A stretch of 64,000 nucleotides of DNA from Podarcis pityusensis. Lineage: Eukaryota. This document shows, piece by piece, positions 14,049-62,853 of the stretch (the first letter of the stretch is position 1; the number at the start of each line of letters is the position of its first letter). Location: assembly GCA_964106645.2 (NCBI GenBank), contig OZ067050.1. One strand, written 5' to 3'. A model generated the notes under the pieces. It saw only the letters and a program-made list of their open reading frames with translations. It had not been told where the DNA came from and searched no databases. A program made the position numbers and the translations under genes.

Positions 14049-14548
14049 CAATTATTGAGCATTCGTCCTGATATGTTTCCTCAATTTTGCAGGGAGGCTT
14101 TATAATATCCCTTGTTTATTTAATATTCATTCTGATTTTCTTGTTCAGAGGTTACTCAACACCATGACAGGCAATTGTTATTTCAAACTTTCCAATGCAT
14201 TTCCTCATTACATTATTTACTACAGAAGTATTGTTGTGCATGTTTGAACTTAGAAGTGGCTTTTGTTTTGCCACAGCCCGAAATCTAATTTAATTGTGCC
14301 ACCTGAATTTCTGGCATGTGCCAAAAACCAAAAGAACAGCCCAGATGGATAAAGTCAAAGCAAATCTAGTCTAGCACCATATTCTCACAGTGGCCAACCA
14401 GAAACCTATGGGAATCCTACACTAGGACCTGAATGGAGCTGCACTCTTCTCACTTGTGATTCCCAGCAAATGGTATTTTTGAGGCATACTGACTCCGACA
14501 GTCAGAGGGTATATGTCTATGTATGGTGCAAAGAAAATGAATAGCCCT

Positions 14549-15105
14549 GGAAAGGAAATAACATCCCAACAAAAAGGGAATGGTTAAGTAAACTATGTGA
14601 GTATCTGGAGTTAGCAAAATTGACGGATATAATAAGGCATAAATCTAAAACTATGGTACAGAAACAATGGGAATGCTTAAATGAATATTTACACAAACAG
14701 GGATCAAACACGAAAGTTTGGTTGTGCTTAGACTAACCTTGTGAAGAATACAGAGAATACAGGAAGTGACTGAAGAACAGATGTAAAAGTTAACTAGATA
14801 ACCAAGAGACGTGTGGTGAATGCGGTGGGAGTCTTTTATATTATTTTAACTAGGATTTAAATATTGTAATGTTTGAAGTATGAATTTGGAATAATTGATT
14901 ATGAAAAATATTTTTTCTTTTCATTTTTTTTCTTGTTTCTTTCTTTTATCTTTTGTCTTTCTTCTTTTCTAGTTTGCATTCTGGAAAATTGTGTAGATAA
15001 AATGTTTTTATGTATGGTTATGTATTGTTTCTATTTCTTCTTTTCCATTCATTTTTTTGTAACATTTAATAAAATTTAAAAAAAATAATTAAAAAAGAAA
15101 GAAAG
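14549..15105 (+). mobile_element. 5'-truncated L1 LINE
   Basis: 19-bp TSD AAAGAAAATGAATAGCCCT (14530-14548, 15106-15124). Encodes an ORF2 C-terminus (WKGNNIPTKREWLSKLCEYLELAKLT...QWECLNEYL), followed by a T-rich 3' UTR, AATAAA and an A-rich tail. Confidence 0.85.
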
Positions 15106-16098
15106 AAAGAAAATGAATAGCCCTAGAAAAAACCTAGCCCTATGCCCTGTGAATTTAGAATTTATCCAAGGTGGCCATAACATTGTATGGGAGTGGAAGA
15201 CATTTCAAAGGAGAGTGAGAGATGAAAGGAGAGAGGGTTAAACATTCTAAGGCTCAAAGACTCAGTTATTCAACAATATCAAAACACCAAGTAACATTTA
15301 ACATACACTTTCTTCACTAAGTTAGTCTATAATTTCAGAGAACGATATTCTCTGTGTGATTAACACTCACTGTTATGCATCCACTAGAAATTTGAGAAAT
15401 CTTACCAATGTCTGTAGGCTTCCTTTAAAATCATGTCCCTTAAAATTCCTCAAGTGTCTTTGTTAAGGTGATTTTTACAGATTATGACCAAATTTAATTT
15501 TAATACAGCTCTTGTTGTTTGTGGATCTATATTACAGTTTAGGGAGGGGGGATGTTCATACCTAATAGACACTACCTGAACCGATATAGAAAATGAAATG
15601 TGACCATACAAAACAAATTTAGGGTACATTTCTATGAATTTTGCAACACTGTTCTCTAGCCAGCCAAAAACAAGCCATAAAAATTATGTATAGTATGGTA
15701 AAGGGCAACCAAAAATACATCAGTGATTAATGGAAATGTACAAAAATACATTATATTTGGGAAAATTTCTTGTAAAAGGCATGTAAGGCATAATTGTGTT
15801 AAAATGCATATTTTAGGAGGAAGGTGCCTGGAAATATGTATGGATTTTCATCTAGGCTGTTTATTGGGGGAGAGAAACTGATGTGAAACTCCTGCAAACT
15901 GAATTTAAGATTTCAGGGAGGGGGAATTAAAATTGAGAGCTCCACCATCTTTACTAGAGATTACACAACAGATTGTGTTGCCCTGTGATGGGATTATGTC
16001 TTTATGTGAAAACAATTTACAGTACTCTGCTTTGTGTGAGATTCATGGGCATAGAGAGTGTTGAGAAAAAGAGTCATTGTAAGTGGAAGGAGGGGGGG

Positions 16099-17697: not shown

Positions 17698-18066
17698 TTC
17701 TTTCTTTTTAATATAATTTTTATTAAATTTTTTCATTATATCAATTCCAACATCAAACAAATTTTCACAAATTTCAGGTTTTTTTGGACTTCCATCAGCT
17801 TCTCTGTCAATCATCCATATTTTCCCATTTTTACACATTTTCTAAGTTTAGTATTGCATTTTAATATTACTTTATCAATCCTCTTTCTGTTTAACAAATA
17901 TTACTCTACCTTTCACAAAGCCTCTTTAAATCCCACTAGCGTTGTTTGTTCATCACATGTACTTTTCAGATATTCAGTAAATTTTTCCCAGTCCTTGATG
18001 AACTTGTGTTCCCGTTGATATCTAATCTTCCCAGTTAATTTGTCCAGTTCAGCATAGTCCATAAGT
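17698..18066 (-). mobile_element. 5'-truncated L1 LINE
   Basis: 16-bp TSD TCACCTCCCCCTTTCT (17682-17697, 18067-18082). The minus strand encodes LMDYAELDKLTGKIRYQREHKFIKDWEKFTEYLK (ORF2 C-terminus), then a 3' UTR and A-rich tail. Confidence 0.85.
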
Positions 18067-22309: not shown

Positions 22310-22950
22310 CAATCATGTACCAGCTCCATCTGCTACACAGGCTTAGACTCTAGCTGCCTATAGACTGTTTCACCAGAGCAGTGCATGCTATAGTTATCTC
22401 CCGCTTGAGCTACTGCAATGTGCTCTACATGGGGTTACCTTTGAAGGTGACCTGGAAAAATGCAATTAATGTAGAATGCAGCAGCTAGACTGGTGATTGG
22501 GAATGGCCACTGAAACCATATAAAACTGGTCCTGAAAGACCTACATTAGCTCCCAGTACAAAATGCAAAGTGTTGGTGCTGACCTTTAAAGCCCCAAATG
22601 GCCTCGGCCCAGTATACCTGAAGGAACGTCTTCACTCCCATCATTCAGCCTGGATACTGAGGTCCAGCACCAAGGGCCTTCTGGCAGTTCCCTCACTGCG
22701 AGAACTGGGGTTGCAGGGAACCAGGCAGAGGGCCTTCTCGGTAGTGGCACCTGCCCTGTGGAATGCCCTCCCATCAGATGTCAAGGAAATAAACAATTAT
22801 CTGACCTTTAGAAGACATCTGAAGGCAGCCCTGTTTAGGGAAGTTTTTAATGTTTGATGTTTTTTCGTGTTGTTAATATTCTGTTGGGAGCTACCCAGAA
22901 TGGTTGGGGCAACCCAGTCAGATGGCCAGGGTATAAATAATTAATTATTG
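22310..22950 (+). mobile_element. L2-clade LINE 3' fragment (decayed)
   Basis: Clearly homologous to 62116-62853 (...VLVLTFK...FRRHLKAALFREVFNV) with the same 3' UTR. Confidence 0.85.
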
Positions 22951-23349
22951 TTATTTCTGTTTGTCTGGAAGTTCCTGATGCTTTTGCAATGCACCTAGAT
23001 GGATTTTCTTCACATTTTATAATCTTTTTTGTAAAAAGAACTTTGTGTGCCTATAATGGTTAAAGTGAGAATGAAACTATCAAAGCAAGTCTCACCTGCA
23101 TGTCAACTCCACACGAGTAGTTCTGCAAGGAATTTTGAGTAGAGACATAAATGTGCCTTGTTTTTAGGTGTATATTGTAAGCCCTTGTATAAAATAAAGA
23201 ACTCACACCTAGAAAGATTTGTTTATTCAAGGATGATATACATAACTTTAGACAGTACATTGCAAAGTCAGCAGGTGCAGGCTGCAACCAATCACTGATA
23301 CATCCATTCTCTCTCTTTTAGAGATGAAAGTGATTCTAACCCTCTAGAA

Positions 23350-29566: not shown

Positions 29567-29988
29567 CTTAAACTTTACTATGAGGCTGCCTGTATAACAT
29601 GGTTGGGTGAATGGATAAAATTGGATAACACCGATTTACTAGTTTTAGAAGGGTTTGGAAATAGACACTCGCGGGACTGAAATAAACCGCATAATGTTTA
29701 TTAAAAATCATTCATTTTGGATTTAAGAACATTGAACAAATATATTACAACAATTGAAGGATGTATATTTAATTAAATTTTGAATAGTATTATTACATAG
29801 TATTAAGTACACAGAATGTAAACATGACAAATGCATAAATATACAGAAAATATAGAGAAACCAGAAGAAGGAAGGAGGGAAGTACAAACTTGTTTAGAGT
29901 TAAAGTATTAAGGTTAAAAGGAATAAGGTATATATTATGTATTATGATGGTGAAATTTGTAAAATCTCTAAAACCAATAAAGATCATA
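29567..29988 (+). mobile_element. Internally deleted L1 fragment, one per array unit
   Basis: 18-bp TSD AAAAAGCATGCAGAGGGC (29549-29566, 29989-30006). Starts with LKLYYEAACITWLGEWIKLDNTDLLVLEGF (resembles post-RT ORF2), then a 3' UTR with AATAAA and an A tail. Empty site at ~24235. Confidence 0.75.
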
Positions 29989-34100: not shown

Positions 34101-35951
34101 GAGTTAGGAAGTCTGTTGCCTTTTCAAAGGCTTTTGGGGACATAATGAAATTAAGGGGGGGGGGGTGCAGGAATCCTTTCTGTTTGGGATATTAGACAAT
34201 GAAATCCCAAGGAATCCCTCAATGACTATAGCAGCAGAAATGAAATGAAGGAAGAATGGTTGATGAAAATCTTGGAATATGCAGAGATGGCAGAATTGAT
34301 GGCACTGAAGTGTAAGATAACAGCAGAATATATGTACAAACATGTTAGAGGGAATTAAATTAGATAAGACAAAACCTTAAAATGCAATTGTATGTAATCT
34401 GAGTTATAAACATCGATGTTGGGTGAGTGGGAAGTCACTAGTTTTGCTGGATTGGAATATAATTGTTGAGTAACAAATGTAACTTTGGATATGGAAAAAA
34501 GAACAAAATACTATTACAAAAAAGAGAGAGACTGTTGCCTTCCATTGCAATGGACAAGAAAGATGTTATATCAAGAGCTATACATAGTTCACCAGGAGCT
34601 GATTCTTGTATCAAAGGTGCAAGCAGGACAAACACTCTGAACCATTAACATGAGCCAGGCAAAAGTCAGGGAAAACACATACCCTCCAACATTCCTCTGA
34701 TGAAAATAGGGACATTTTGGAGGGTAAAGGTAAAGGTAGCCCTGGCCGTTATGTTCAGTCGTGGATAGGCAACCACAATTAGGTGTAGTGGTGTAAGTGT
34801 GGGTTAAAATGTTTCCCATTGCTTTACTCCAAAGACCGACTGGGAGGAAGGTCAGTTGGAGCCCTTCTTACCTGGCCCTTGCTCCACCCCCCAGCCTGCA
34901 GCTGATTGGCTAGCCAGGGAGGGAGTAGAACGATGGCCTGCATGCAGAGGGGCATCACCCTGGCACAGGAAGCCTGAGCCGGGTTGCAAACCCCGCCCAC
35001 TGCTAAAGGTGTGAGCGGTAATTCCCATTGCTTTACTTTTCCATAGAAAATTCATTCATTCGACTTATTACAGTTATTACACCTTAGGTGAAATACAATA
35101 AAATTCAGATTAAGCAAAACAACAACCACAGCAATTCTATGCCACCTTTCATCTGCGGATCACAGGGCAGTTTACAATATAAAAACACAAAAATACACAA
35201 TAGAGTAACAGACAAAAACAACAACCCCACCCACTTTTAAAGGCCATAGATTATTGAATTAGCCCAAGGCCTGGGCAGCATAGCCCAAAGTCACTTATGA
35301 TGGGAGCTAGAGAAAAAGCATGCAGAGGGCCTTAAACTTTACTATGAGGCTGCCTGTATAACATGGTTGGGTGATTGGATAAAATTGGATAACACCGATT
35401 TACTAGTTTTAGAAGGGTTTGGAAATAGACACTCGCGGGACTGAAATAAACTGCATAATGTTTATTAAAAATCATTCATTTTGGATTTAAGAACATTGAA
35501 CAAATATATTACAACAATTGAAGGATGTATATTTAATTAAATTTTGAATAGTATTATTACATAGTATTAAGTACACAGAATGTAAACATGACAAATGCAT
35601 AAATATACAGAAAATATAGAGAAACCAGAAGAAGGAAGGAGGGAAGTACAAACTTGTTTAGAGTTAAAGTATTAAGGTTAAAAGGAATAAGGTATATATT
35701 ATGTATTATGATGGTGAAATTTGTAAAATCTCTAAAACCAATAAAGATCATAAAAAAGCATGCAGAGGGCTGCAGGGCAAAGACAGATATTTTAAGCACT
35801 ACACCAATTTTCACAATTTGCAATATAAGCAATGTACCCCTTCTAGATCAATTGAGAAAACAAAGCTAAATCTATTTAGCTGCTTCAAAGTTTCCTCATA
35901 GAATTTCAGGTTTTCTATAATTAGTTTTATCCTCTATACAGATATTATCCT

Positions 35952-40058: not shown

Positions 40059-40258
40059 NNNNNNNNNNNNNNNNNNNNNNNNNNNNNNNNNNNNNNNNNN
40101 NNNNNNNNNNNNNNNNNNNNNNNNNNNNNNNNNNNNNNNNNNNNNNNNNNNNNNNNNNNNNNNNNNNNNNNNNNNNNNNNNNNNNNNNNNNNNNNNNNNN
40201 NNNNNNNNNNNNNNNNNNNNNNNNNNNNNNNNNNNNNNNNNNNNNNNNNNNNNNNNNN
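40059..40258. other. Assembly gap (200 N)
   Basis: A run of exactly 200 N, typical of an arbitrary-size scaffold gap. Confidence 0.99.
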
Positions 40259-53700: not shown

Positions 53701-54920
53701 GGGGGTGCAGGAATCCTTTCTGTTTGGGATATTAGACAATGAAATCCCAAGGAATCCCTCAATGACTATAGCAGCAGAAATGAAATGAAGGAAGAATGGT
53801 TGATGAAAATCTTGGAATATGCAGAGATGGCAGAATTGATGGCACTGAAGTGTAAGATAACAGCAGAATATATGTACAAACATGTTAGAGGGAATTAAAT
53901 TAGATAAGACAAAACCTTAAAATGCAATTGTATGTAATCTGAGTTATAAACATCGATGTTGGGTGAGCGGGAAGTCACTAGTTTTGCTGGATTGGAATAT
54001 AATTGTTGAGTAACAAATGTAACTTTGGATATGGAAAAAAGAACAAAATACTATTACAAAAAAGAGAGAGACTGTTGCCTTCCATTGCAATGGACAAGAA
54101 AGATGTTATATCAAGAGCTATACATAGTTCACCAGGAGCTGATTCTTGTATCAAAGGTGCAAGCAGGACAAACACTCTGAACCATTAACATGAGCCAGGC
54201 AAAAGTCAGGGAAAACACATACCCTCCAACATTCCTCTGATGAAAATAGGGACATTTTGGAGGGTAAAGGTAAACGTAGCCCTGACCGTTATGTCCAGTT
54301 GTGGATAGGCAACCACAATTAGGTGTAGTGGTGTAAGTGTGGGTTAAAATGTTTCCCATTGCTTTACTCCAAAGACCGACTGGGAGGAAGGTCAGTTGGA
54401 GCCCTTCTTACCTGGCCCTTGCTCCACCCCCCCAGCCTGCAGCTGATTGGCTAGCCAGGGAGGGAGTAGAACGATGGCCTGCATGCAGAGGGGCATCACC
54501 CTGGCACAGGAAGCCTGAGCTGGGTTGCAAACCCCGCCCACTGCTAAAGGTGTGAGCGGTAATTCCCATTGCTTTACTTTTCCATAGAAAATTCATTCAT
54601 TCAACTTATTACAGTTATTACACCTTAGGTGAAATACAATAAAATTCAGATTAAGCAAAACAACAACCACAGCAATTCTATGCCACCTTTCATCTGCGGA
54701 TCACAGGGCAGTTTACAATATAAAAACACAAAAATACACAATAGAGTAACAGACAAAAACAACAACCCCACCCACTTTTAAAGGCCATAGATTATTGAAT
54801 TAGCCCAAGGCCTGGGCAGCATAGCCCAAAATCACTTATGATGGGAGCTAGAGAAAAAGCATGCAGAGGGCCTTAAACTTTACTATGAGGCTGCCTGTAT
54901 AACATGGTTGGGTGATTGGA

Positions 54921-57102
54921 CTTCCGGGTTAGCGCCTCTGGCAATGGCGGATTTCCTCTGATTGGGAGGAATCCGCTTCATGAGAATTAGGGTCTGGACC
55001 GCCGTGGCGAGGCGGAGACCCACTAAAAAGCACAGGTGGGAGAAGCCTGTGGACGTGGGATTCGGCTGGCACCTTTCGCGCCTCCCCTAATCACGGGGAA
55101 ACCCGGTTTCGGGGATCTGGAGCGATGTGGGGTGAATGACGCGGTGCTTCGAATCGACTGCTCTTTTCACAGAGTGAAGCCGCATTGCTGTTGCCGGAGA
55201 GCACTGACTTTTTCCTGTGGACAATTGGATTTTAAACAACTGCCCATGAGTAGAACGGAAAATTGGACTATGAAATTTCTTAATTTGTTACTGAAGTGGG
55301 AAGGTCTAAACAGGAAGTCCGCCTTCCACTTTTGTAAATAGATTGAAGCAAAGACATGGCAAGCTAGAGTCTGGAAAGTCGTTTGTAAAGGATTAAATTT
55401 TCATCATTTAAAATTACTGAACCCCCCCCCCCTTAGAAGCAGGAGAAGAGGGGGGAATCTTTTTTAGACTGTCTAAACCTGCAGAAGAGAGAGTAAAGAA
55501 AGGTAAATTTCCACCGTCTTGAACCTGGGAGCAGGGTGTCAGGACAGACGTTTTGGGGAAGTTCATTGACTGTGGACAAACGTTTTTGACAGATAGTCAA
55601 AAAAAGAGAAACCTATTGATTCCATTGTTCCCTTTTGCATTTAAAAGGAACAAAATATCCGAAAAAGGAACTTTGTTGCTAGATCTGCTTTTAAAAAGAC
55701 GGATACAAATAGAAATTGTTTCCCCTAGAGGGAGCTTGTGAAACTGTTATTAGAGTCGAACTGGGGAGCTTTGCAGCTGTAGAGATTAAAGATCGTGGGA
55801 CCAGACTTTGACCTTGAACAAGAATGTGCTTAGAAGAAGCTTTAGTGCTTGCTCTTTGCAAGACAAGTGCTTTATTGGAACAGTTACATGAGAAGATGGA
55901 TTTGATGACTGTTGCAGTCGGATATTTTGGACAAACAGTGAATACCTATATAGAACCCACTCAGGAATTAATCCAGGAATGTGCTTTGACAGATCAGATA
56001 AAGGAGGAGGTTGTTGCTGAACCTCAAGTAGCAGAAATGGAGAGAGCTGCGGCCCAGCAGGAACATGAGTTGTTGGATTTGACGAATGAACCTGGAAAAA
56101 GTCAGATTTGGAGAGATGGAGTTCTGTTTGGCTTGGAGATGGGGGGCTGGATGGATCCCCCTATGCAGGGATGTTTTGACCTTTCAAGTCTGGCTTTGGG
56201 CCGGGGGGAGTTGGGAGTTGTGGGGGCCCTTAACTTTGGAGGGACTTTGAAACATGCCTTTAAATATCACATGGATTTCAGTGTTTACTATGGAGAATGG
56301 GCTGACTTGTCGAGAAGGGACAAAGATATTGTCAAGTTGGAGTCTCCCCGAGAGAAAGGAAGGAAATTAAGAATAAGATCAACAGAAGACAAAGTAAAGT
56401 ACAGGTATAAACATGAAGAAGACCTGCGGAAGGGACATGGAAAAGACTTAAGAGCCTCGGATAGAAGGTCACTAGGTTGATGGACTAGATGGATGGGATA
56501 GAAAGGACTGACAAAACCCGAGACCAGGAAGAAGAAACGATGGATGAAGATTGGAAGAAAGTTTTAAAAATTTATTTAGAAATCATCGTAAAATTAATGA
56601 GTATTAGAAAAATGTTGGAATGAAATTATTTGGCTTTAGCAGAAATGTTAAAAAGAATTATGTAAGAATATGTTATGGTTAAAAGAATTAGGTATAAATA
56701 AGACTTAAGTTTTAAGCTTTAGGGTTTTTATGGTAAGATAAGGTTAAAATAGATTAAGGTAATTTAATGACAGAATATTGTGAAAGATGGAAAAGATTTG
56801 CTGAGATAATTAATAACTAGAATACAAAAAAGGAGGTGTGAGGAGGTTGATGAAATAAGTTAATGAAAGTTAAGGATTTGGGAATATTTGATTTGTTTTT
56901 AATTTTTTTGTTTATTTTTGCTTTTTGATTTTGATGTATTGTGTGTTTTGTTTTTTCTCTTTGACTTTGGTTTTTATTGATTTGTATTGTTTAATTGCTA
57001 TTTTTGTCTACCTTTTTCTTTCTTTTTCTTTTTCTCTTGTTTCTTCCTTCTTTTTTCTCTGTAATTTTAAATTCTCAATAAATATCATTTTTTTATAAAA
57101 AA
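54921..57102 (+). mobile_element. Non-autonomous L1-derived retroposon (HAL1-like or internally deleted L1), ~2.18 kb
   Basis: 20-bp TSD AACATGGTTGGGTGATTGGA (54901-54920, 57103-57122); CpG-rich 5' end (GA)CTTCCGG...AATGGCGG; ORF2 C-terminal remnant at ~56477-56585; T-rich 3' UTR, AATAAA at 57077 and an A tail. Absent from the other four units. Confidence 0.85.
55824..56480 (+). CDS. 218-aa ORF within the L1-derived element (ORF1 position; function unknown)
   Basis: ATG-initiated and uninterrupted, with a heptad-like acidic N-terminal half and a basic C-terminus. No recognisable endonuclease or RT motifs. Confidence 0.45.
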   Translation: MCLEEALVLALCKTSALLEQLHEKMDLMTVAVGYFGQTVNTYIEPTQELIQECALTDQIKEEVVAEPQVAEMERAAAQQEHELLDLTNEPGKSQIWRDGVLFGLEMGGWMDPPMQGCFDLSSLALGRGELGVVGALNFGGTLKHAFKYHMDFSVYYGEWADLSRRDKDIVKLESPREKGRKLRIRSTEDKVKYRYKHEEDLRKGHGKDLRASDRRSLG

Positions 57103-57697
57103 AACATGGTTGGGTGATTGGATAAAATTGGATAACACCGATTTACTAGTTTTAGAAGGGTTTGGAAACAGACACTCGCGGGACTGAAATAAACCGCATA
57201 ATGTTTATTAAAAATCATTCATTTTGGATTTAAGAATATTGAACAAATATATTACAACAATTGAAGGATGTATATTTAATTAAATTTTGAATAGTATTAT
57301 TCCATAGTATTAAGTACACAGAATGTAAACATGACAAATGCGTAAATATACAGAAAATATAGAGAAACCAGAAGAGGGAAGGAGGGAAGTACAAACTTGT
57401 TTAGAGTTAAAGTATTAAGGTTAAAAGGAATAAGGTATTTATTATGTATTATGATGGTGAAATTTGTAAAATCTCTAAAACCAATAAAGATCATTAAAAA
57501 AAAGTTTGCAGAGGGCTGCAGGGCAAAGACGGATATTTTAACCACTACACCAATTTTCACAATTTGCAATATAAGCAATGTACCCCTTCTAGATCAATTG
57601 AGAAAACAAAGCTAAATCTATTCAGCTGCTTCAAAGTTTCCTCATAGAATTTCAGGTTTTCTATAATTAGTGTTATACTCTATACAGATATTATCCT

Positions 57698-58672
57698 TCA
57701 CAAAATAAGACTGGAAAAGTTTTTCATAGAGGAGTGAGGCAAACGCAGTAGCTTTGATAGAGCGTTTTTAATCTCCTTATTTCTCATGCTATAGATTACT
57801 GGATTCATCAAGGGTGGAACCATGGAATACATCACTGTAAATGCCAAATCTAGATATGGTGAGGTATTAGAGGTAGGCTTGAAGTACGCAAAGTATCCAG
57901 TAAATACAAATAGGGCATAAACTATGAGATGGGGAAGGCAGGTTGAGAAAGCCTTTCGCCTTCCTTCAGTTGAGGGGATTTTCAGCACGGCATTGAAGAT
58001 GTACACGTAGGTTATGATGATGAAGATAAAACAGCCAACTCCAATGACACCGCTTAACACAAGAACTCCGATTTCCATTAGATACAAATCAGTGCAGGCC
58101 AGCTTAAGTAACTGCGGGATTTCACAAAAAAATTGATTGACTTCATTGGAACAAAAGGGGGATGCAAAGGTACCTCCAGTGTGTAACACTCCATAGAAAA
58201 AGCTGCTGATCCATACACTGCTAATCATTTGAATATAGGCTTGCCTATTCATCAGCATCCCATACTGCAATGGTTTGCAAATGGCAACATACCGATCATA
58301 TGCCATGACTGTGAGAAGAAAGAAATCAGATGCCATAAATGACATGAACAATAGTACTTGTGCAACACACCCAGAGTAGGAAATGTACCTGGTATTCATG
58401 AGGGAATTGAGCATGGATTTGGGATTAATGACTGAAACTTGTCCCAGGTCCTGCATGGCCAAGTTCAGCAGGAAGAAGTACATGGGGGTGTGCAGGTGGT
58501 GGTCAAAGGCTACTGCAGAGATGATGAGAAGATTCCCTGTGACAGTTGCCAAGTACAATACCAGGAATATAACGGAATGTAGAATTTGCAGTTCCCGAAC
58601 TTCTGAGAATTCTAGGAGGAGAAATTCTGAAAAAGATGATTGATTATCCATGCTCTGCTTCTTCACATTCAT
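57698..58672 (-). CDS. Olfactory receptor, OR14-like (324 aa); right flanking gene 'B' of the array
   Basis: Canonical OR motifs; nearly identical to the array copies except in TM5. Confidence 0.97.
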   Translation of the reverse strand: MNVKKQSMDNQSSFSEFLLLEFSEVRELQILHSVIFLVLYLATVTGNLLIISAVAFDHHLHTPMYFFLLNLAMQDLGQVSVINPKSMLNSLMNTRYISYSGCVAQVLLFMSFMASDFFLLTVMAYDRYVAICKPLQYGMLMNRQAYIQMISSVWISSFFYGVLHTGGTFASPFCSNEVNQFFCEIPQLLKLACTDLYLMEIGVLVLSGVIGVGCFIFIIITYVYIFNAVLKIPSTEGRRKAFSTCLPHLIVYALFVFTGYFAYFKPTSNTSPYLDLAFTVMYSMVPPLMNPVIYSMRNKEIKNALSKLLRLPHSSMKNFSSLIL

Positions 58673-62115: not shown

Positions 62116-62853
62116 GTGCGCAGCCTGGGAGTCATTTCGGACTCACAGCTGTCCATGGAGGCACAGGTTAAATCCGTGTCCAGGGCAGCTGTGTACCAGC
62201 TCCATCTGGTACGTAGGCTGAGACCCTATCTGCCCGCGGACTGCCTCGCCAGAGTGGTGCATGCTCTGGTTATCTCCCGCTTGGACTACTGCAATGTGCT
62301 CTACGTGGGGCTACCTTTGAAGGTGACCCGGAAACTACAACTAATCCAGAATGCAGCAGCCAGACTGGTGACTGGGAGCGGCCGCCGAGACCATATAACA
62401 CCGGTCTTGAAAGACCTACATTGGCTCCCAGTACATTTCCGAGCACAATTCAAAGTGTTGGTGCTGACCTTTAAAGCCCTAAACGGCCTCGGTCCAGTAT
62501 ACCTGAAGGAGCATCTCCACCTCCATCGTTCTACCCGGACACTGAGGTCCAGCACCGATGGCCTTCTGGCGGTTCCCTCACTGCGAGAAACCAAGTTACA
62601 GGGAACCAGGCAGGGGGCCTTCTCGGTAGTGGCGCCCTCCTTGTGGAACGCCCTCCCACCAGATGTCAAAGAGAACAACAACTACCAGACTTTTAGAAGA
62701 CATCTGAAGGCAGCCCTGTTTAGGGAAGCTTTTAATGTTTGATGTATCACAGTATTTTAATATTCTTTTGGAAGCCGCCCAGAGTGGCTGGGGAAATCCA
62801 GCCAGATGGGCGGGGTATAAATAATAAATTATTATTATTATTATTATTATTAT
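62116..62853 (+). mobile_element. Young 5'-truncated L2-clade LINE
   Basis: Open 208-codon RT C-terminal frame (SRLDYCN..., HITPVLKDLHWLPV..., FSVVAPSLWNALP), a 3' UTR and an (ATT)n tail. Confidence 0.9.

Follow-up and report, generated by a model that had tools for sequence, protein, structure and literature searches.

The stretch of Podarcis pityusensis DNA analysed here, 64,000 nt of contig OZ067050.1 in assembly GCA_964106645.2 (hereafter the window), contains an olfactory receptor cluster arranged in tandem units of 5.76 kb, one of which is interrupted by a 2,182-nt insert. This insert is a short, non-autonomous derivative of the retrotransposon L1, and its only long open reading frame (ORF) appears to have been kept open while the protein that it encodes drifted.

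A short L1 derivative in an olfactory receptor cluster

The insert lies between two exact copies of the 20-bp sequence AACATGGTTGGGTGATTGGA (54901..54920 and 57103..57122, both on the plus strand), the longest repeat flanking it, which form a target-site duplication (TSD) without any mismatch. The last three bases of the left copy are also the first three of the element, a microhomology at its 5' end. The insertion site reads GTAT/AACA, a loose fit to the TT/AAAA preferred by the L1 endonuclease. Four paralogous sites (29596, 35360, 43376, and 49137) are empty, with the 20-mer exact in two and bearing one change in the other two. A preliminary description of this locus had counted one filled unit among five near-identical ones; the four empty sites bear this out, but the filled unit is the divergent end unit, which shows 19 differences over 750 nt on the right-hand side of the site versus 0-3 differences over 1,650 nt among the four empty units, so that a very recent date for the insertion cannot be read from the array. 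In addition, a gap of undetermined letters (N) at 40059-40258 is surrounded by a 13.6-kb repeat at 99.5% identity (26476-53837). This may reflect overlapping haplotypes or an error of the assembly, and the olfactory receptor units may have been overcounted as a result. An empty-site joint in X9 (54900 to 57103, 2 contigs) was considered for presence or absence at the orthologous unit and dropped, since the contig has the paralogues' letters at 54831 and 57169.

The target itself was an older L1-type fragment of ~430 bp, flanked by an 18-bp TSD of its own. It is continuous in the four empty units (~35331-35765, likewise in the units at 29596, 43376, and 49137) and split in the filled unit into a 5' part just left of 54920 (~54872-54920) and a remainder at 57123..57505 on the plus strand. 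In it, ~40 codons of a motif that follows the reverse transcriptase in ORF2 are joined directly to a 3' untranslated region (UTR) with AATAAA; because this motif sits some 400 residues before the end of ORF2 in intact L1s, the older fragment may be another internally deleted L1.

The element, all of whose parts lie on the plus strand, begins with an L1-type 5' UTR of 906 nt (54918..55823) that is CpG-rich over its first 300 nt and contains seven short upstream ATG frames. Its first letters, GGACTTCCGG (54918-54927), are followed by ATGGCG at 54944, as in the 5' terminus of lizard clade-1 L1s, GACTTCCGGTGN8ATGGCG (PMC5381506), which makes this copy full length. A promoter for RNA polymerase II (Pol II) presumably resides inside this 5' UTR, the first 143 nt of which fold better than shuffled sequences (z -2.8, 2/200; one of the six segments tested). 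The ORF (55824..56480, 218 amino acids) is the sole frame of at least 100 amino acids in the insert, which encodes neither endonuclease nor reverse transcriptase, and consists of an N-terminal helix (a coiled-coil remnant), the first half of an RNA recognition motif (RRM), a 40-residue in-frame deletion, a remnant of the C-terminal domain (CTD), and a conserved tail of 18 residues that reaches the junction with the next segment. That segment (56477..56581), of ~35 codons in a frame other than that of the ORF and with a stop at codon 4, had been described as the decayed end of ORF2. Its protein score against an L1 tail at ~17916-18066 (minus strand), 44, was reached by 0/500 window-shuffled elements, and its score against a three-peptide profile was equalled in 7/500 shuffles, whereas DNA alignments of the 3' part of the element to the L1 tails in the window were not significant (121/500 and 71-361/500 shuffles); we therefore regard it as a probable ORF2 remnant, not a firm one. 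The TGA of the ORF comes from the first codons of this remnant, which makes this position the junction of the ORF1-ORF2 deletion.

The 3' UTR (56582..57076) is A/T-rich at first and strongly T-rich further on (62-66% T in 56901-57100), and the element closes at 57077..57102 with AATAAA (57077-57082), a T run, and an A tail at 57097-57102 of only six A, or eight counting the first two bases of the TSD. The perfect TSD, the CpG-rich start, the single open frame, the T-rich 3' UTR with AATAAA and A tail, and the lack of endonuclease and reverse transcriptase are all as initially described. RNA folding revealed no stable structure at the junction (three segments compared with shuffles, z 0.09 to 0.75) and none beyond shuffles in the 3' UTR, and 54800-57200 gave 0 Rfam matches at E up to 1. 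Together with the L1 5' terminus and the long ORF, the latter result excludes a short interspersed element (SINE).

A degenerate ORF1 protein in a multi-copy lizard family

Searches with the 218-residue protein alone gave 0 Pfam families, no usable match in the ESM Atlas, 0 sequence matches in PDB, and, using its low-confidence structural model, nothing at E 0.001 in Foldseek. Profile comparison retrieved the ancestry that these searches missed: a profile of 12 short proteins and one of 17 intact proteins are colinear over 206 columns, interrupted by a single gap of 40 residues (probability 98%, E 1.8e-13). A tblastn search with P0021 finds one frame in the window (E 1e-11), and a profile search started from the ORF reached longer proteins such as P0014, from which a further search gave 22 proteins. 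The best PDB sequence match of the intact relatives is human ORF1 protein (ORF1p; E 0.0046); in the profile search against PDB, human ORF1p had E 5e-4, with two coiled-coil adhesin fragments scoring above it. The model of an intact protein displays coiled coil, RRM, and CTD, and its ten best PDB fold matches are human LINE-1 ORF1p (best E 2.7e-10). By sequence comparison, then, the ORF is a degenerate L1 ORF1p, and we discarded a new protein family as an explanation. The preliminary description had not recognised it as ORF1p; since it is recognisable as such, the comparison with HAL1 (half-L1) elements made there was right.

The short proteins begin at the second methionine of ORF1p, without its first ~55 residues, and also lack the 40 residues that make up the second half of the RRM. 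Among 54 invariant ORF1p columns, 17 are deleted in the window protein and 13 of the remaining 37 are kept. The isoelectric point is 4.7-6.0 in 8/8 short proteins versus 8.4-9.2 in 8/8 intact ones. The structural model of the short protein has one confident N-terminal helix, no strands, and a mean prediction confidence (pLDDT) of 44.7, against a clear RRM and a mean of 67.9 in the intact control, both predictions having been made with shallow alignments. These models suggest that the RNA-binding fold of the short protein has been lost.

In a phylogenetic tree, unrooted and with long-branch warnings, nine short proteins of 30-81% identity occupy one side of a branch with support 100/99 that joins beside P0011; from the joining node, the path to the window protein amounts to ~1.7 changes per site, versus 0.12 to P0011 and 0.45 to P0021. 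P0004, P0008, P0015, P0016, and P0028 were omitted from this tree, P0016 (a long repetitive protein) being taken as a chance match, as were P0018-P0020, near-copies of P0009. The RRM deletion is common to all nine short proteins and the same tail closes eight of them, which points, as far as sequences tell, to a single origin of the junction. P0009 and P0018-P0020 are four near-identical 215-residue proteins with ~30% identity to the window protein, a distant short-ORF subfamily and possibly a young one in another lizard. In the Podarcis muralis OR14A16-like protein P0004, the first ~110 residues of an olfactory receptor gene model derive from a copy of the short-ORF family, a second insertion beside an olfactory receptor gene, whose annotation as an exon is probably an error. 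P0015 and P0022 (P. muralis, TRIM39-like) join RING and B-box domains to the RRM and CTD of an intact L1 ORF1p, and are either a gene-model artefact or a TRIM-ORF1 fusion.

Parts of the element are present in 20 of the 24 sequencing runs listed, from six organisms. In three DNA runs of three organisms, 10,959, 8,388, and 10,101 contigs fall on the element, covering all of its bins and mostly 90-99% alike, and the depth of bins inside the element is tens to thousands of times that of two right-flank bins, a summed contig depth that gives no copy number and serves only to say 'many'. Two among the 32 contigs listed (X5 record 24 and X15 record 15), out of a set with 29,765 more, bridge the ORF1-ORF2 junction with at least 31 letters per side; X15 was classed as RNA by guess and may be DNA, so that it is not evidence of transcription, and no RNA run figures among those listed with the element. 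Relatives of the ORF comprise three proteins at 44-65% identity found by protein search and 13 profile-search matches, six of them in the short family, and the named relatives come from Podarcis lizards. The contigs covering the whole length, the diverged contigs bridging the junction, and the clade of nine related short proteins rule out a one-off deletion and support a multi-copy, long-lived non-autonomous L1 derivative that propagates in its short form, as the preliminary description had proposed.

The same description placed the insertion 'very recently', a dating that the data do not support. The run richest in the element's 31-mers contains 47% of them, which by arithmetic corresponds to about 2.4% divergence, and of the 36 variant sites listed, 18 are private to the window copy (in each of the three DNA runs, 85% or more of the depth carries another letter). 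These 18, 6 of which are of the CpG-decay type, amount to a difference of at least 0.8%. The 36 sites are what remains of the 40 listed among 527 rows once three flank rows and one row exclusive to X15 are dropped, and the DNA runs need not be of the species of the window. The insertion is young, its copy lying at least 0.8%, and perhaps about 2.4%, away from the family majority.

Proposed selection on an open frame

We examined substitutions in the short proteins by comparing the mean BLOSUM62 score of mismatches with that of neutral change simulated in the window ORF. All ten chosen pairs of short proteins fall inside the neutral null (p 0.07-0.90). Over the same columns, z exceeds 2, meaning change more conservative than the null, in 6 of 36 short pairs versus 133 of 136 intact pairs, counts in which the pairs are not independent. 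When only differences shared by sisters are retained, a restriction that excludes decay after insertion, the five short comparisons give z from -1.6 to +1.1 and the four intact ones z from 3.8 to 5.4 under three mutation models. Ten listed variants fall inside the ORF, nine of them non-synonymous and none producing a stop, and of the 12 indels listed among 78, ten lie outside the ORF and the other two are a -1/+1 pair inside it, 4 nt apart. Between 20 and 24 stop-making events would be expected en route to 31% identity, and the probability that the frame is still open at 40% identity does not exceed 1e-8, even when A>G changes are favoured tenfold and indels are assumed to occur at a rate of 1 in 20. 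As an internal control, both the ORF2 remnant and the sequence upstream of the ATG do contain stops. The last 18 residues form an exception to the general drift, with an identity of 0.70 (28 short pairs) versus 0.28-0.40 elsewhere, the same region being variable (0.44) in intact ORF1p. No homologous DNA suitable for the ratio of non-synonymous to synonymous rates (dN/dS) was found in the metagenome or viral contigs searched. Selection thus appears to act on the openness of the frame and not on the amino-acid sequence; of the earlier suggestion that the protein is under selection, the maintained frame survives, but the residues drift as if neutral.

We propose, with a probability only slightly better than even (about 0.55), that the element belongs to a half-L1 (HAL1-like) lizard family in which the frame is held open because translation aids the RNA, and not for a chaperone function of the protein. 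One ancient deletion would have fused the end of ORF1 with the final codons of ORF2, creating the stop, and a further deletion, of 40 codons, would have cost the protein half of its RRM before the subfamilies diverged. The element is likely transcribed by Pol II from its L1 5' UTR and its single ORF would then be translated, the RNA taking ORF2p, and probably ORF1p too, from intact L1s. Target-primed reverse transcription by these borrowed proteins would likely generate the TSD. Ribosome loading could stabilise the intronless poly(A) RNA and hold it near L1 RNAs under translation, where the tail of the ribosome-held RNA would compete for new ORF2p. A similar course is modelled for Alu, which in that model reaches ribosomes via SRP9/14 and there competes for L1 ORF2p (PMC11760393), and in one study a marked Alu driven by Pol II required ORF1p in trans (PMC2666806).

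Several observations weigh against this proposal. Neutrality is judged from BLOSUM scores against simulations begun from the window ORF, and not from dN/dS; the homologues were found as predicted proteins, which biases them towards open copies; the pairs are non-independent and the deep alignments uncertain, as the long-branch warnings indicate; and P0005 stops early. The 70% identity of the last 18 residues among short proteins, versus 28-40% elsewhere, and an N-terminal helix that is still predicted (pLDDT 69-85 over residues 1-40), with a weak pass in complex prediction with intact ORF1p, make some constraint at the protein level possible. Moreover, the start context is modest and seven ATG frames precede the ORF, both of which could limit translation.

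The helix is the basis of the alternative that survives best, although we consider it rather unlikely: a residual function in which the short protein co-assembles with intact ORF1p through its N-terminal helix, either as a tether that binds its own RNA to L1 particles during translation or as a decoy poisoning the ORF1p of autonomous L1s, so that only a loose helical pattern is selected. The helix is the only confidently modelled part of the protein, and when residues 1-90 were modelled in complex with two copies of the P0021 coiled coil, the score was 0.49, versus 0.00 for the best of three controls, with runs agreeing in at least 83% of contacts and a partner pLDDT of at least 67. Of 78 solved complexes 51 attain the mark applied, as do 2 of 108 mismatched pairs, and passing scores of 0.60 or under, found in only 5 of the 78 solved complexes and in all 4 passing mismatches, are more often wrong than right; the prediction thus lends weak support. 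It is also known that a truncated human ORF1p with an intact coiled coil represses L1 in trans (PMC5605252), and HAL1-type proteins have been proposed to multimerise with the protein of their autonomous partner (PMC5786205). However, a trimer homologous to the partner has been solved, and likeness alone may account for the pass; the helix region, with a conservation of 0.38 and several indels, is no better kept than the rest (0.28-0.40); and 150 further open codons are left unexplained.

A second alternative, which we hold to be improbable, is that the open frame merely delivers the last ~18 residues, ending in Pro-Gly-stop in most relatives, to the ribosome tunnel, slowing termination and parking ribosomes. 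Arrest peptides with proline before the stop exist, as do 2A peptides in non-LTR elements. This would explain openness, neutrality, and tail conservation together, the tail being conserved in the short proteins and not in intact ORF1p, and it agrees with the lack of a stable RNA fold at the junction. Against it, contig depth climbs from ~56353 through the non-coding 3' part, so that it may be the nucleotide sequence that is conserved, or 3' ends may have been exchanged between subfamilies; the tail motif, by eye, is no 2A consensus; and the window copy has Leu for Pro, a private change. Combining this peptide with the translation proposal, the element would carry a ghost ORF1 serving as a ribosome-loading track, its fold lost and its residues drifting neutrally, whose open frame delivers a C-terminal arrest peptide that parks ribosomes to steal L1 ORF2p, a speculative scenario to which we give little weight.

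That no selection operates at all, the ORF being a dead relic and the open frames chance survivors picked by gene callers and by the author of the preliminary description, is very improbable: the neutral substitution spectrum, the nine non-synonymous sites of ten, the provenance of all homologues from protein collections, the early stop of P0005, and the missing start of P0010 would fit, but the subfamily of the window copy is young and high-copy, with no stop among the ten listed ORF variants and, among the 12 indels listed of 78, only the -1/+1 pair in the ORF, the probability of an open frame at ~1.7 changes per site from intact ORF1p is below 1e-8, and the same stop recurs in 8/9 deep relatives.

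Relation to known elements and other features of the window

HAL1 elements are non-autonomous L1 derivatives that encode ORF1p only and have several origins in mammals (PMC5753468), have been grouped with HeT-A and Ag-Sponge (PMC5786205, PMC4859970), and kept their ORF1 coding capacity for long, which has been interpreted as a requirement for the protein in cis (PMC3627910). The lizard element resembles them in its architecture (5' UTR, ORF1 only, L1-type 3' end) and in the long retention of ORF1 coding capacity, HAL1 itself arising independently from different L1s (PMC5753468, PMC3627910, PMC5786205, PMC4859970). It has a single ORF derived from L1 ORF1, no endonuclease or reverse transcriptase of ORF2, many copies in the short form, an L1-derived 5' end, and an L1-type 3' end with A tail and TSD, with a modest match to the ORF2 tail. 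By contrast, HAL1 is described from mammals in the papers cited above and its ORF1p is taken as working, whereas the lizard protein combines an open frame with a half-deleted RRM, an acidic composition, and neutral-looking substitutions. With 40 RRM residues deleted, 13 of 54 invariant residues kept, no modelled strands, and an acidic protein, it lacks the intact coiled coil, RRM, and CTD, and for this reason we file it as a HAL1 variant, not under any named HAL1 family. Bao and Jurka reportedly found in 2010 that HAL1 ORF1p evolves faster than L1 ORF1p. In the titles and abstract openings covered by our literature searches, we met no description of a HAL1-like family in lizards or other reptiles, and the available excerpt of PMC5203782 makes no mention of one in lizards; Repbase or Dfam may already contain the present family.

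With lizard clade-1 L1s (PMC5381506) the element has in common the 5' motif GACTTCCGG...ATGGCG, a 5' UTR whose 906 nt fall within the reported 792-1,465, its ORF1 ancestry, and a low-GC 3' UTR with AATAAA, A tail, and TSD. It differs from them in its length (2.18 kb versus ~6.4 kb), its ORF (657 nt versus ~1,066), the lack of endonuclease and reverse transcriptase, and a spacer between the two 5' motifs that is 6 nt longer (16 nt versus 10); without intact ORF1 and ORF2 it is no autonomous clade-1 L1. RRM and CTD are otherwise highly conserved in vertebrate L1s (PMC5381506). HeT-A (Jockey clade) and Ag-Sponge (CR1 clade) are likewise internal deletion derivatives with one ORF1-type frame and dependent on an autonomous partner (PMC5786205), but they belong to other clades of long interspersed elements (LINEs), and their proteins are proposed to multimerise with those of the partner, unlike a lizard protein without an RNA-binding fold. 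The likeness to Alu, a poly(A) RNA at ribosomes competing for L1 ORF2p (PMC11760393), is a possible one drawn by analogy; Alu is a short non-coding RNA, derived from 7SL, made by RNA polymerase III and using SRP9/14, whereas the lizard RNA would be a 2.2-kb L1 derivative proposed to reach ribosomes by translation.

The persistence of ORF1 in half-L1s has been read as proof of a need for the protein in cis (PMC3627910), and the lizard family separates the alternatives, as it opposes an open frame to a broken RNA-binding domain and drifting residues. If our proposal is true, translation itself would be a selectable trait of a non-autonomous Pol II retrotransposon, and the family would offer a natural test of how trans-mobilised RNAs obtain ORF2p. 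Were the ghost ORF1 with its arrest peptide real, it would be the coding counterpart of the Alu-SRP9/14 trick, and HAL1 ORFs might generally be kept for translation, not for chaperone function. Within the literature searched, the family would extend HAL1-like elements beyond mammals. It also has consequences for annotation, since copies of the element are annotated as host genes, namely as hypothetical proteins in Podarcis lilfordi and, in P. muralis, as the first part of an olfactory receptor gene model.

Elsewhere in the window, ~14530-15127 holds a 5'-truncated 3' fragment of an L1 that has an imperfect TSD and an ORF2 C-terminus, and whose T-rich 3' UTR shares the layout of the element's. 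In the last olfactory receptor gene, ~21 differences from the four other units are clustered within ~100 nt (57988-58091), beyond which the sequences are nearly identical; this cluster is likely a gene-conversion tract. Finally, an ORF of 195 amino acids at 62155-62742, with a copy at 83% in 22316-22955, presumably corresponds to the C-terminus of an L2/CR1-type LINE, which it resembles by eye.

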